NCBI RefSeq assembly: GCF_024298765.1
Contig: NZ_CP101210.1
Source: Escherichia coli
GTDB taxonomy: Bacteria > Pseudomonadota > Gammaproteobacteria > Enterobacterales > Enterobacteriaceae
Direction: 5' to 3' (one strand)
Length of the DNA: 64,000 bases
The number at the start of each line of letters is the position of its first letter. Position 1 is the first letter of the stretch. Shown in pieces: positions 19,338 to 56,867 of this stretch. A program made the translations under genes and the position numbers. Under the pieces are notes generated by a model, which was not told where the DNA came from, made no database searches, and worked only from the letters and a program-made list of their open reading frames with translations.

Positions 19338-19557
19338 GAACACCAGGGGGAGGGGGAAACCTCTCCCTAACCCTCACTCCTGAAATTATGTCACTCCGCC
19401 CTTAGTGTCAATCGACGGCTCTCCGTTCTTGCGAGGCGAATAGCAAAATTTTCTGCGCCGCCGGGCCTAATTCTGAAAGTTTCTTCGTTTGTTCTTATTT
19501 CATTATTGCAGTCGGTATGATACCGGACCTCAATAATTCTCTAAGAAAGGATTTCTT

Positions 19558-50739: not shown

Positions 50740-50743
50740 ACGT

Positions 50744-50842
<99 letters not shown>

Positions 50843-50931
50843 ATGAATGCGAAACCGAGATGTAAATAACGACAAAAACAAAATTGGCCGTTTCGGTCAG
50901 GGCCAACTATTGCCTGAAAAAGGGTAACGAC

Positions 50932-52302
50932 ATGAAAAAATTAACCTGCTTTAAAGCCTATGATATTCGCGGGAAATTAGGCGAAGAACTGAATGAAGAT
51001 ATCGCCTGGCGCATTGGTCGCGCCTATGGCGAATTTCTCAAACCGAAAACCATTGTGTTAGGCGGTGATGTCCGTCTCACCAGCCAAACCTTAAAACTGG
51101 CGCTGGCAAAAGGTTTACAGGATGCGGGCGTTGACGTGCTGGATATTGGTATGTCCGGCACCGAAGAGATCTATTTCGCCACGTTCCATCTCGGCGTGGA
51201 TGGCGGCATTGAAGTTACCGCCAGCCATAATCCGATGGATTATAACGGCATGAAGCTGGTTCGCGAGGGGGCTCGCCCGATCAGCGGAGATACCGGACTG
51301 CGCGACGTCCAGCGTCTGGCTGAAGCCAACGACTTTCCTCCCGTCGATGAAACCAAACGCGGTCGCTATCAGCAAATCAACCTGCGTGACGCTTACGTTG
51401 ATCACCTGTTCGGTTATATCAATGTCAAAAACCTCACGCCGCTCAAGCTGGTGATTAACTCCGGGAATGGCGCAGCGGGTCCGGTGGTGGACGCCATTGA
51501 AGCCCGCTTTAAAGCCCTTGGCGCACCCGTGGAATTAATCAAAGTGCACAACACGCCGAACGGCAATTTCCCCAACGGTATTCCTAACCCGCTACTGCCG
51601 GAATGCCGCGACGACACCCGCAATGCGGTCATCAAACACGGCGCGGATATGGGCATTGCCTTTGATGGCGATTTTGACCGCTGCTTCCTGTTTGACGAAA
51701 AAGGGCAGTTTATCGAAGGCTACTACATTGTCGGCCTGCTGGCAGAAGCGTTCCTCGAAAAAAATCCCGGCGCGAAGATCATCCACGATCCACGTCTCTC
51801 CTGGAATACCGTTGATGTGGTGACTGCCGCTGGCGGCACGCCGGTGATGTCGAAAACCGGACACGCCTTTATTAAAGAACGTATGCGCAAGGAAGACGCC
51901 ATCTACGGTGGCGAAATGAGCGCCCACCATTACTTCCGTGATTTCGCTTACTGCGACAGCGGCATGATCCCGTGGCTGCTGGTCGCCGAACTGGTGTGCC
52001 TGAAAGATAAAACGCTGGGCGAACTGGTACGCGACCGGATGGCGGCGTTTCCGGCAAGCGGTGAGATCAACAGCAAACTGGCGCAACCCGTTGAGGCGAT
52101 TAACCGCGTGGAACAGCATTTTAGCCGTGAGGCGCTGGCGGTGGATCGCACCGATGGCATCAGCATGACCTTTGCCGACTGGCGCTTTAACCTGCGCACC
52201 TCCAATACCGAACCGGTGGTGCGCCTGAATGTGGAATCGCGCGGTGATGTGCCGCTGATGGAAGCGCGAACGCGAACTCTGCTGACGTTGCTGAACGAGT
52301 AA
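50932..52302 (+). CDS. cpsG: phosphomannomutase (ManB/CpsG)
   Basis: 456 aa from internal Met [14 protein letters not shown]; active-site TASHNP; the ORF-track start at 50884 is an upstream extension. Confidence 0.95.
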
Positions 52303-52312
52303 TGTCATTACT

Positions 52313-52416
52313 TTCCCCCTCACCCTGACGCTCTACTGCCTGCGGAGAGAAGTGAGCACGGAACTTTCTTCTCCCCCTCGCCCCTTTGGGGAGAGGGCCG
52401 GGGTGAGGGGCGAGGC
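52313..52416. repeat. GC-rich nested palindrome (boxC-like repeat) between cpsG and wcaJ
   Basis: ccccctcaccc (52315-52325) pairs with gggtgagggg (52401-52410); cctcgcccc (52376-52384) pairs with ggggcgagg (52407-52415). Confidence 0.5.
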
Positions 52417-52437
52417 GACAATAGAACAGGAACAACG

Positions 52438-53832
52438 ATGACAAATCTAAAAAAGCGCGAGCGAGCGAAAACCAATGCATCGTTAATCTCTATGGTGCAA
52501 CGCTTTTCAGATATCACCATCATGTTTGCCGGACTATGGCTGGTTTGCGAAGTCAGCGGACTGTCATTCCTCTACATGCACCTGTTGGTGGCGCTGATTA
52601 CGCTGGTGGTGTTCCAGATGCTGGGCGGCATCACCGATTTTTATCGCTCATGGCGCGGTGTTCGGGCAGCGACAGAATTTGCCCTGTTGCTACAAAACTG
52701 GACCTTAAGCGTGATTTTCAGCGCCGGACTGGTGGCGTTCAACAATGATTTCGACACGCAACTGAAAATCTGGCTGGCGTGGTATGGGCTGACCAGTATC
52801 GGACTGGTGGTTTGCCGTTCATGTATTCGTATTGGGGCGGGCTGGCTGCGTAATCATGGCTATAACAAGCGCATGGTCGCCGTAGCGGGGGATTTAGCCG
52901 CCGGACAAATGCTGATGGAGAGCTTCCGTAATCAGCCGTGGTTAGGGTTTGAAGTGGTGGGGGTTTACCACGACCCGAAACCGGGCGGCGTTTCTAACGA
53001 CTGGGCGGGCAATCTTCAACAGCTGGTCGAGGACGCGAAAGCGGGCAAGATTCATAACGTCTATATCGCGATGCAAATGTGCGACGGCGCGCGAGTGAAA
53101 AAACTGGTCCATCAATTGGCGGACACCACCTGTTCGGTGTTGCTGATCCCCGATGTCTTTACCTTCAACATTCTCCATTCACGTCTTGAAGAGATGAACG
53201 GCGTTCCGGTGGTGCCGCTTTACGACACGCCGCTTTCCGGGGTTAACCGCCTGCTCAAACGTGCGGAAGACATTGTGCTGGCGACGCTTATTCTGCTGCT
53301 GATCTCCCCGGTGCTGTGCTGTATTGCGCTGGCGGTGAAACTCAGTTCACCAGGGCCGGTTATTTTCCGCCAGACTCGCTATGGCATGGATGGCAAACCG
53401 ATCAAAGTGTGGAAGTTCCGTTCGATGAAAGTGATGGAGAACGACAAAGTGGTGACTCAGGCGACGCAGAACGATCCGCGCGTCACCAAAGTGGGGAACT
53501 TTCTGCGCCGCACCTCGCTGGATGAACTGCCGCAGTTTATCAATGTGCTGACCGGGGGGATGTCGATTGTGGGGCCACGTCCGCACGCAGTAGCGCATAA
53601 CGAACAGTATCGCCAGCTCATTGAAGGCTACATGCTGCGCCATAAAGTGAAACCGGGCATTACTGGCTGGGCGCAGATTAACGGCTGGCGCGGCGAAACC
53701 GACACGCTGGAGAAAATGGAAAAACGCGTCGAGTTCGACCTTGAGTACATCCGCGAATGGAGCGTCTGGTTCGATATCAAAATCGTTTTCCTGACGGTGT
53801 TCAAAGGTTTCGTTAACAAAGCGGCATATTGA
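52438..53832 (+). CDS. wcaJ: UDP-glucose:undecaprenyl-phosphate glucose-1-phosphate transferase WcaJ
   Basis: 464 aa; polyisoprenyl-phosphate hexose-1-phosphate transferase C-terminal domain. Confidence 0.9.
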   Translation: MTNLKKRERAKTNASLISMVQRFSDITIMFAGLWLVCEVSGLSFLYMHLLVALITLVVFQMLGGITDFYRSWRGVRAATEFALLLQNWTLSVIFSAGLVAFNNDFDTQLKIWLAWYGLTSIGLVVCRSCIRIGAGWLRNHGYNKRMVAVAGDLAAGQMLMESFRNQPWLGFEVVGVYHDPKPGGVSNDWAGNLQQLVEDAKAGKIHNVYIAMQMCDGARVKKLVHQLADTTCSVLLIPDVFTFNILHSRLEEMNGVPVVPLYDTPLSGVNRLLKRAEDIVLATLILLLISPVLCCIALAVKLSSPGPVIFRQTRYGMDGKPIKVWKFRSMKVMENDKVVTQATQNDPRVTKVGNFLRRTSLDELPQFINVLTGGMSIVGPRPHAVAHNEQYRQLIEGYMLRHKVKPGITGWAQINGWRGETDTLEKMEKRVEFDLEYIREWSVWFDIKIVFLTVFKGFVNKAAY

Positions 53833-55312: not shown

Positions 55313-55340
55313 GTTGCTGTTTTCGGTTCCGACAACGGTT

Positions 55341-55526
55341 GCCGGATGCGGCGTAAAACGCCTTATCCATCCTACGGTTCCGTGCTCGGGACCTGTAGGC
55401 CTGATAAGACGCGTCAGCGTCGCATCAGGCACTGAATGCCGGATGCGGCGTGAACGCCTTATCCGGCCTACGGTTCTGTGCTCGGGTCTTGTAGGCCTGA
55501 TAAGACGCGTCAGCGTCGCATCAGGC
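55341..55526. repeat. tandem BIME/REP cluster (two ~95-bp units)
   Basis: Two near-identical units each holding gccggatgcggcgt(g/a)aacgccttatcc and tgtaggcctgataagacgcgtcagcgtcgcatcaggc. Confidence 0.8.
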
Positions 55527-55586
55527 AAAAAGCGGCAACGAACAAAACAAACACAGCCCACCTGGCATCAAATTTATGAGGAAAAA

Positions 55587-56867
55587 ATGAAATTACTTAT
55601 TCTGGGCAACCACACTTGCGGCAATCGTGGCGACAGCGCCATCCTGCGCGGCTTACTTGATGCCATCAACATCCTCAATCCACACGCCGAAGTGGACGTG
55701 ATGAGCCGCTATCCGGTCAGTTCTTCCTGGCTGCTCAACCGCCCGGTAATGGGCGATCCGCTGTTCCTGCAAATGAAACAACACAACAGCGCGGCGGGCG
55801 TTGTCGGGCGCGTTAAAAAAGTCCTCCGTCGCCGCTACCAGCATCAGGTATTGCTCTCACGCGTCACCGACACTGGCAAGCTGCGTAATATCGCCATCGC
55901 CCAGGGATTCACCGACTTCGTGCGCCTGCTGTCAGATTACGACGCCATTATTCAGGTCGGCGGATCGTTTTTTGTCGATCTCTACGGCGTGCCGCAGTTT
56001 GAACATGCACTTTGCACGTTTATGGCGAAAAAGCCGCTGTTTATGATTGGTCACAGCGTCGGTCCCTTCCAGGATGAGCAATTTAACCAACTGGCGAACT
56101 ACGTTTTTGGTCACTGCGACGCGCTGATCCTGCGCGAATCGGTCAGCCTTGATCTGATGAAACGCAGCAATATCACTACCGCAAAAGTGGAACATGGCGT
56201 CGATACCGCGTGGCTGGTCGATCACCACACAGAAGAATTCACCGCCAGCTATGCCGTTCAACACTGGCTGGACGTTGCCGCACAACAGAAAACGGTGGCA
56301 ATTACCCTGCGCGAACTGGCACCGTTCGACAAACGTCTCGGCACCACTCAACAAGCGTATGAAAAAGCCTTTGCCGGGGTGGTCAATCGCATTCTCGACG
56401 AAGGCTATCAGGTTATTGCGCTCTCCACCTGTACGGGCATCGACAGCTATAATAAAGACGACCGCATGGTGGCGCTCAATCTTCGCCAGCACATCAGCGA
56501 TCCTGCCCGTTACCACGTGGTGATGGATGAACTCAACGATCTGGAAATGGGCAAAATTCTCGGAGCCTGTCAACTCACCGTCGGTACGCGTCTGCACTCA
56601 GCCATTATCTCGATGAATTTCTCCACTCCGGCAATTGCCATCAACTACGAACATAAATCCGCCGGGATTATGCAGCAGCTGGGGCTGCCAGAGATGGCGA
56701 TCGATATCCGTCATTTATTAGATGGCAGCCTGCAAGCGATGGTTGCGGATACCTTAGGCCAGCTTCCGGCGCTGAACGCACGACTTAGCGAAGCCGTCAG
56801 TCGCGAACGTCAGACGGGAATGCAGATGGTGCAATCTGTGCTTGAGCGCATCGGGGAGGTGAAATGA
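55587..56867 (+). CDS. wcaK: colanic acid pyruvyl transferase WcaK
   Basis: 426 aa from internal Met MKLLILGNHTCGNRGD with RBS (gaggaaaaa); the 517-aa ORF-track extension reads through the REP array. Confidence 0.9.
   Translation: MKLLILGNHTCGNRGDSAILRGLLDAINILNPHAEVDVMSRYPVSSSWLLNRPVMGDPLFLQMKQHNSAAGVVGRVKKVLRRRYQHQVLLSRVTDTGKLRNIAIAQGFTDFVRLLSDYDAIIQVGGSFFVDLYGVPQFEHALCTFMAKKPLFMIGHSVGPFQDEQFNQLANYVFGHCDALILRESVSLDLMKRSNITTAKVEHGVDTAWLVDHHTEEFTASYAVQHWLDVAAQQKTVAITLRELAPFDKRLGTTQQAYEKAFAGVVNRILDEGYQVIALSTCTGIDSYNKDDRMVALNLRQHISDPARYHVVMDELNDLEMGKILGACQLTVGTRLHSAIISMNFSTPAIAINYEHKSAGIMQQLGLPEMAIDIRHLLDGSLQAMVADTLGQLPALNARLSEAVSRERQTGMQMVQSVLERIGEVK

Follow-up and report, generated by a model that had tools for sequence, protein, structure and literature searches.

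A BoxC (PIT/TMECO) copy at the hairpin site between cpsG and wcaJ in the Escherichia coli colanic acid operon

What kind of element is the GC-rich palindrome that separates cpsG from wcaJ in the colanic acid operon of Escherichia coli, and does it act on the operon? An earlier note, made from the sequence alone, had offered three options: an attenuator, an mRNA stability element or a boxC-type repeat. We analysed the palindrome in a stretch of 64,000 nt (64 kb; hereafter, the window). In the ORF reading of the window, the cpsG stop codon TAA is located at 52300-52302 and the wcaJ ATG starts at 52438, and both gene boundaries match the RefSeq annotation of strain TUM18780, which is 100% identical over 52150-52590. 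The features of the intervening spacer are summarized in Table 1.

Table 1. Features of the cpsG-wcaJ spacer (positions in the window).
Feature	Position	Strand	Basis or remark
cpsG-wcaJ intercistronic spacer, long allele, 135 nt	52303-52437	+	full-length in 508/5426 complete E. coli genomes
Outer closing stem, 5' arm	52316-52327	+	pairs with 52399-52410; RNA and DNA MFE structures, inverted repeat I1
Probable decayed inverted BoxC copy	52317-52352	-	alignment to reverse TMECO copies; weak HMM score
Left-copy block CCCTCACCC	52317-52325		
Left-copy TGA	52326-52328		
Left-copy block CGCTCTACT	52329-52337		
Left-copy GCCTG	52338-52342		
Left-copy block CGGAGAGAAG	52343-52352		
Linker between the two copies, TGAGCACGGAACTTTCTTCTCC	52353-52374	+	resembles the linkers of K-12 yagA-yagE and Enterobacter L042
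Unit repeated elsewhere in E. coli chromosomes (core and 8 nt of 5' flank)	52367-52411	+	megablast, query 65-109
Intact BoxC/PIT/TMECO core, type B 'mm'	52375-52410	+	exact consensus fit; nhmmer E = 1.3e-10
Core block C1, CCCTCGCCC	52375-52383		
Core loop CTTTG	52384-52388		
Core block G2, GGGAGAGGG	52389-52397		
Core CCG	52398-52400		
Core block G3, GGGTGAGGG	52401-52409		
Core final G	52410		
Outer closing stem, 3' arm, overlapping block G3	52399-52410	+	RNA and DNA MFE structures, I1
Extra G block AGGGGCGAGG	52406-52415	+	perfect complement of 52376-52385, giving an alternative nested pairing (I4)
Unpaired tail with the wcaJ Shine-Dalgarno AGGA (52428-52431)	52421-52437	+	single-stranded in MFE and centroid folds

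Fold of the spacer and identity of its repeat

Both pairs of complementary G/C blocks described in the earlier note were present in the 135-nt spacer. The block CCCCTCACCC (52316-52325) is complementary to GGGTGAGGGG (52401-52410) within 19-nt arms that are 84% complementary (inverted repeat I1), and CCTCGCCCCT (52376-52385) is complementary to the extra G block at 10 of 10 positions (inverted repeat I4). Enterobacter hormaechei L034 has a comparable extra block after its G3. The very stable extended stem-loop that the note had proposed was borne out by RNA folding. The MFE of the + strand was -59.0 kcal/mol, compared with -45.4 +/- 3.6 kcal/mol in dinucleotide shuffles (z = -3.76), and 1 of 200 shuffles was as stable as the spacer. 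The corresponding values were -56.6 kcal/mol (z = -2.3) for RNA of the - strand and -26.2 kcal/mol (z = -2.45) for DNA of the + strand. In the predicted RNA structure, the outer stem encloses three inner hairpins, one of which is C1:G2 (52375-97). The motif GGGGTGAGGGG (up to 1 mismatch) occurred 3 times in the window, where 0.5 occurrences were expected, and every one of them fell within the cpsG-wcaJ spacer.

Judged by its sequence, the palindrome is a copy of BoxC (PIT, TMECO), a known dispersed repeat of E. coli. TMECO, an E. coli motif forming intrastrand triplexes, is the element earlier named BoxC and PIT (Holder et al. 2015, PMC4666352). The segment at 52375-52410, which is intergenic between the cpsG stop (52302) and the wcaJ ATG (52438), obeys the three-block consensus CCCTCNCCC-N3-6-GGGNGAGGG-N3-GGGNGAGGG exactly and is identical at 36 of 36 positions to TMECO no. 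3 of MG1655 (282,101-282,136, type B 'mm'; Table 1 of PMC4666352). The second loop of TMECO is either type A (TTA) or type B (CCG) (PMC4666352); the CCG at 52398-52400 places the copy in type B, and the central G/A mismatch between C1 and G2 places it in the 'mm' variant. For the type B mm 36-mer class, an intrastrand triplex of the G-rich strand has been shown in vitro by CD and NMR (PMC4666352). When the window was searched with a profile of the 23 published K-12 TMECO copies (nhmmer), 52375-52409 was the sole significant match (E = 1.3e-10). The fold z-scores, the enrichment of GGGGTGAGGGG and this profile match indicate that the structure of the spacer is a real feature and not a product of chance.

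The core was also found at other loci in a megablast search of the spacer, for example at K-12 282093-282137 (97.8%). We counted copies in complete E. coli genomes by distant-mode blastn with a 50-nt core query. The core occurred in 4875 of the 5426 genomes, at a median of 11 and a maximum of 20 places per genome, and 48,808 places were chromosomal versus 21 that were plasmid-borne. Strain E2865, which carries the identical allele, has 16 core places in its own genome. The exact consensus, the identity of the core to a K-12 copy and the many genomic copies confirm the guess of a boxC-type repeat; the earlier note had counted a lack of other genomic copies against the element, and the genome-wide search that it proposed found them in abundance. 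The cpsG-wcaJ locus is outside the 23 K-12 copies and is not named in the text of PMC4666352. The MG1655 annotation in the genome collection used shows no repeat features. The copy described here is a new yet ordinary member of the family, and about 9% of complete E. coli genomes carry it. The earlier literature on BoxC/PIT is said to comprise work by Bachellier et al. in the 1990s and by Hoyne and Maher in 2000, and to our knowledge BoxC has had no known function for 30 years.

The left half of the spacer is probably a decayed inverted copy of the same repeat. Its blocks follow one another as in an inverted TMECO (C3'-nnn-C2'-loop-G1'), although about one quarter of its positions are changed. 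It can be aligned to the reverse TMECO of head-to-head pair 17+18, located in the K-12 lldD-trmL spacer, and, linker included, to the left copy that Enterobacter L042 carries intact in its cpsG-wcaJ spacer. TGA stands in place of the TAA of type A, and the inner blocks are decayed and have lost their mutual pairing, which fits decay; the right copy is pristine. With the reverse-copy HMMs (128 kb searched), the left half was the top match in the window at a non-significant E value (0.4-0.6; 0.4-1.2 over all HMM searches), and for this reason we grade the assignment as probable only. If it is accepted, the spacer contains a head-to-head pair like the lldD-trmL pair of K-12. In paired TMECO copies, an inverted type A copy always lies alongside a type B copy (Holder 2015, PMC4666352). 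We rejected the left half as a dispersed repeat of its own, because distant blastn found 52303-52372 at the cpsG-wcaJ locus only, at one place each in 508 E. coli genomes.

Two further observations concern the arrangement of BoxC blocks. In the paired or four-block BoxC of loci L023, L034, L005 and L007, the two 3-nt linkers were never complementary (TAA/CCG, CGG/TTA), which matches the rule of type A with type B (Holder 2015, PMC4666352) and would preserve a 3x3 internal loop in the long hairpin. Elsewhere in the window, 19346-19382 reads GGGGGAGGGGG-AAA-CCTCTCCC-TAA-CCCTCAC, a BoxC-like fragment whose blocks come in a permuted order (G, C, C on the + strand) and which was the second-best match of both the TMECO and the reverse-copy HMMs (E = 1.7-8.9).

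The element was distinct from the REP/BIME repeats of the cluster, as had been claimed. The REP consensus (GCCGGATGCGGCG..., up to 2 mismatches) gave 17 matches in the window, none of which was within 52303-52437, and those in the cluster were confined to the cpsB-cpsG (50761-50841) and wzxC-wcaK (55341-55526) spacers. The wzxC-wcaK spacer (55313-55587) is BIME-like and contains two direct repeats of about 92 nt (55340-55431 and 55437-55527), each with an inverted REP pair. The cpsB-cpsG spacer (50740-50931) is 192 nt long in the window and in TUM18780 and 104 nt long in K-12. An inverted REP pair (50761-50841) accounts for the additional length and is a second strain-variable repeat insertion in the operon.

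The hairpin site within E. coli and across Enterobacteriaceae

The long spacer was found in 508-509 of the 5426 complete E. coli genomes, in varied backgrounds (O145, O2:H1, a strain named ST-131, and bovine and human isolates). The short K-12-type spacer (54-55 nt; TGTCGGATCTTCCCTTACCCCACTGCGGGTAAGGGGCTAATAACAGGAACAACG) was found in 4130 E. coli genomes. The short allele forms a 9-bp hairpin, CCCTTACCC/GGGTAAGGG (-19.2 kcal/mol when folded with its flanks), at the same position as the long element. In the alignment of the two alleles, the arms of the short hairpin fall on the outer-arm positions of the long allele, from which they differ by a complementary T:A versus C:G change; the alleles differ over their whole length, and no target-site duplication was found at the junctions. 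Variants of the long allele occur in RM14721, which lacks 1 nt in loop 1, and in E69, which lacks 8 nt so that G3 is truncated. The rest of the cluster in the window is 96.7-98.3% identical to K-12. The coexistence of long and short alleles in E. coli without a known phenotype argues that the BoxC-specific parts are dispensable.

We collected WcaJ-anchored loci from 80 GTDB species, which gave 76 distinct cpsG-wcaJ spacers with the window and K-12 alleles included. A C-arm/G-arm helix (8 bp, up to 1 mismatch, C-rich 5' arm) was present in 64 of the 76 spacers, compared with a mean of 7.7 in shuffled spacers. The 3' arm of the hairpin ends approximately 19-30 nt upstream of the wcaJ ATG, and the wcaJ ribosome-binding region ACAGGAACAACGATG is near-invariant between genera. 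Blocks of the types CCCTCNCCC (C) and GGGNGAGGG (G) were counted with up to 1 mismatch. The full head-to-head order CCGCGG was found in 11 species of Enterobacter, Buttiauxella, Kluyvera, Lelliottia and Pseudenterobacter, and approximately 18 further species contained 3-9 blocks, so that about 29 of the 76 spacers have three or more BoxC blocks. Approximately 35 spacers contain a single C-arm/G-arm hairpin and approximately 10 something else. A four-block palindrome, CCCCTCACCC-CGG-CCCTCTCCC-TGT-GGGAGAGGG-TTA-GGGTGAGGGG, occurs in Enterobacter sp. kpr-6. S. enterica subsp. arizonae, the one Salmonella sampled, has the short hairpin only. Holder et al. report no TMECO in Salmonella but many copies in some Enterobacter genomes, with 143 in E. 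asburiae (PMC4666352). The hairpin is found nearly everywhere and the BoxC elaboration where the family is active, a pattern that fits this TMECO distribution.

The short hairpin was examined in 15 aligned sequences of Escherichia, Salmonella and Citrobacter, in which 97.3% of the cells were paired and 3 of the 10 pairs showed double-sided changes (A:U to G:C, C:G to U:A and U:A to C:G). Its covariation score was 0.214, compared with 0.121 in shuffles (0 of 500 reached 0.214) and 0.089 or less with the partners slid. The sense RNA was the more stable fold in 52 spacers, against 21 for the antisense RNA (Wilcoxon p = 3e-4). Owing to the relatedness of the species, the p-values of both tests overstate independence. 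Template-switch (quasipalindrome) mutation in DNA palindromes can also yield compensatory changes without selection. For the long forms, RNAalifold gave an extended imperfect palindrome in which covariation was nearly absent (term +0.32), owing to the sequence conservation of the blocks. The invariable 5' position of the C arm was rejected as a sign of strand-specific function, as the reverse complement of the hairpin has the same order. From these comparisons, the hairpin site ahead of the wcaJ ribosome-binding site appears to be old and conserved. We found no description of the cpsG-wcaJ stem-loop in open papers of the searchable literature, and the near-fixed position of the hairpin across Enterobacteriaceae, with its elaboration into BoxC forms in many lineages, may be the new part of this work.

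Several individual loci deserve mention. The spacers of L033 (Enterobacteriaceae RIT714, 247 nt) and L059 (UBA5654, 357 nt) contain tandem arrays of units of about 60-70 nt fused to BoxC blocks, which suggest expansion of the element through tandem duplication. In L017 (Citrobacter youngae CCUG 30791) and L019 (Citrobacter sp. Cu233), unrelated sequence at approximately 1350-1500 replaces most of cpsG; the last 45 nt or so of cpsG, the hairpin and the wcaJ ribosome-binding site are still intact. L083, recorded as Chryseobacterium sp. 18061, contains a typical enterobacterial cpsG-hairpin-wcaJ locus (WcaJ identity, 81%), and the assembly is probably contaminated or mislabelled.

The K-12 BoxC pair at lldD-trmL served as a control and showed no comparable conservation among the seven further TrmL clusters compared (85-94% identity). 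None of the seven had as many as three blocks upstream of trmL, one had a two-block hairpin, and in four the upstream gene was different. This small comparison, with one control locus and 7 taxa of which 4 have different synteny, merely hints that, among BoxC sites, the one between cpsG and wcaJ is unusual. Another conserved hairpin (CTGCCCCC...GGGGGCAG) abuts the trmL start codon (L092, 489-518; L093-L104, approximately 660-700). It lies downstream of the motif CTGCTAT(C/T)CTG and was present in 8 of 8 TrmL loci, even where the upstream gene is different.

Termination, chance, DNA instability and mobility as alternatives

As a transcriptional attenuator or partial terminator, the stem-loop would leave wcaJ and the genes downstream of it less strongly expressed than the GDP-fucose genes that precede them. 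A very stable hairpin, conserved at its site inside an operon and directly upstream of the gene of the initiating glycosyltransferase, would suit such a function; moreover, Rahn and Whitfield are said to have described in 2003 a stem-loop attenuator between wzc and wbaP in the group 1 capsule cluster of E. coli K30. However, no T/U run follows the stem (the following sequence is GGGGCGAGGCGACAATAGAAC / CGAGGCGACAATAGAAC), and the same holds for the short allele and for other genera; without a U-run after the stem, the element is not an intrinsic terminator. A promoter and terminator scan gave nothing tied to the palindrome, and the lone terminator-like site nearby (52283-52307) is a weak AT-rich stem over the cpsG stop that is within chance expectation. 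The cps operon is RfaH/ops-dependent, and RfaH suppresses hairpin pausing and termination, which also speaks against attenuation. The PIT/BoxC elements that have been tested showed no promoter or terminator activity (Hoyne and Maher, cited in PMC4666352) and did not impede RNA polymerase (PMC4666352). The attenuator option of the earlier note is therefore unsupported, and we regard it as improbable. That the palindrome arose by chance or belongs to an unrelated structured RNA gene is scarcely credible: only the high GC content speaks for it, and against it stand the fold (z = -3.8) and the exact match to the family consensus (E = 1.3e-10), the latter of which already refutes it. Rfam covariance models over 51800-52900 gave matches at chance level only (even the best had E values near 1 or above and fell in unrelated eukaryotic families), and the scan revealed no promoter-like site nearby.

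The remaining alternatives concern the DNA itself. A purine-motif triplex of the G-rich strand, or a cruciform, could stall replication and make the site a hotspot of deletion or recombination, in which case the element would be a source of variation rather than an RNA signal. TMECO oligonucleotides form triplexes in vitro, and rearrangement among E. coli strains is greater at TMECO loci than at control sites, whereas no triplex was detected by in vivo DMS footprinting (PMC4666352). The location in the recombination-prone cps/O-antigen region and the polymorphism of the site, including the small deletions in RM14721 (1 nt) and E69 (8 nt), are in keeping with such instability. A fully complementary partner, which is present in the head-to-head pair, out-competes purine triplexes, however, and instability leaves the retention of the hairpin across genera with compensatory changes unexplained. 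We consider action at the DNA level rather unlikely; it is compatible with our main reading and does not exclude it. A recent insertion of a MITE-like mobile element into a simple spacer, with the BoxC blocks as its terminal inverted repeats, is quite improbable. The terminal inverted blocks, the dispersed family, the variation in presence within the species and the similar linkers at different loci would accord with insertion. However, the site lacks a target-site duplication, and the difference between the alleles runs through the whole 40-120 nt instead of being a clean insertion. No E. coli genome has more than one copy of the left 70 nt, plasmids hardly ever carry the family, the same spacer is occupied in many genera, and the putative left copy is old and decayed with a pristine right copy beside it. 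We know of no transposase for BoxC.

Proposed role and comparison with known systems

We consider it likely that the palindrome is a head-to-head BoxC composite on an old hairpin site, which is co-transcribed, does not terminate transcription and acts, if at all, as the short hairpin does, with BoxC as a passenger. The composite would consist of the intact type-B copy (52375-52410) and the decayed inverted copy (52317-52352), arranged head-to-head across a short linker, and pairing of its two outermost blocks would close the structure. It would occupy the place of the simpler C-arm/G-arm hairpin found in most E. coli and in most other Enterobacteriaceae. Within the long cps mRNA (wza to wcaM), the element is predicted to fold as a multi-branch stem-loop of very high stability in which the wcaJ Shine-Dalgarno stays free, and transcription would continue through it. 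The structure could be an RNA barrier protecting the upstream cpsG segment from 3' exonucleases. Alternatively, it could insulate the translation-initiation region of wcaJ against ribosomes that terminate on cpsG. As for the BoxC sequence itself, it is most likely a passenger that elaborates the hairpin in a genome where the family is active, and not a dedicated regulator. A role of the element in mRNA stability is plausible on comparative grounds, since different genera keep a hairpin at precisely this position, with compensatory changes in it.

A stronger proposal, which we hold only tentatively and think possible rather than probable, is that the hairpin located approximately 19-30 nt upstream of wcaJ is a cis-acting RNA element, ancient and under selection, that belongs to the colanic-acid operon across Enterobacteriaceae and of which the BoxC forms are elaborations. 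If so, the hairpin could determine how stable, or how well translated, the message is on one side of the cpsG/wcaJ junction relative to the other. BoxC elaborations would arise where the family is active (Enterobacter, Kluyvera, Buttiauxella and some E. coli) and would be missing where it is absent. BoxC would thereby gain a concrete RNA-level context, and a spread of the family by conversion of pre-existing hairpins, rather than by transposition, would be suggested.

Taken alone, the element adds little, being one more BoxC/TMECO copy in a strain-variable spacer. The locus, on the other hand, is a natural allelic series at one position of a well-studied operon, with a 9-bp hairpin and a probable decayed pair in E. 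coli and with four-block palindromes, full head-to-head pairs and tandem expansions in other genera. The series is convenient material for studying what BoxC does and how it arises. The near-constant distance of the hairpin from the wcaJ ribosome-binding site, together with the compensatory changes, points to an undescribed cis element, which may tune the expression of the initiating glycosyltransferase of colanic acid synthesis.

Among other systems, the K30 attenuator has in common with the cpsG-wcaJ element a hairpin in a polysaccharide operon, directly upstream of the gene of the initiating phosphoglycosyl transferase. The K30 element is reportedly terminator-like, whereas the spacer element has no U-run and belongs to a family without terminator activity. 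REP/BIME repeats are, like the BoxC spacer, intercistronic, GC-rich, transcribed palindromic repeats inside an operon, and their function as a barrier to 3' exonucleases is the same kind of mechanism as the RNA role proposed for the spacer hairpin; the intercistronic REPs of malE-malF stabilise the upstream mRNA. The sequence family of REP/BIME differs from BoxC, and we know of no RAYT-type transposase linked to BoxC. The ERIC/IRU (enterobacteria) and Correia/NEMIS (Neisseria) elements resemble the spacer element in being small, palindromic, intergenic, co-transcribed and variably present. In contrast to such MITE-type repeats, the spacer element has no target-site duplication, its full-length composite does not recur, and the occupied site is conserved across genera rather than scattered.

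With the known BoxC copies, the spacer shares the exact three-block consensus, the type B second loop, the 'mm' mismatch and the intergenic site, as well as the many chromosomal copies and the strain-variable presence and, probably, the inverted pairing. The known BoxC pair has an intact type A partner, whereas the probable partner copy in the spacer is decayed, and the extra G block (52406-52415) of the spacer provides a second nested pairing. Unlike lldD-trmL, the one control BoxC site, the cpsG-wcaJ spacer is filled by the hairpin or its BoxC form in most enterobacterial genera.
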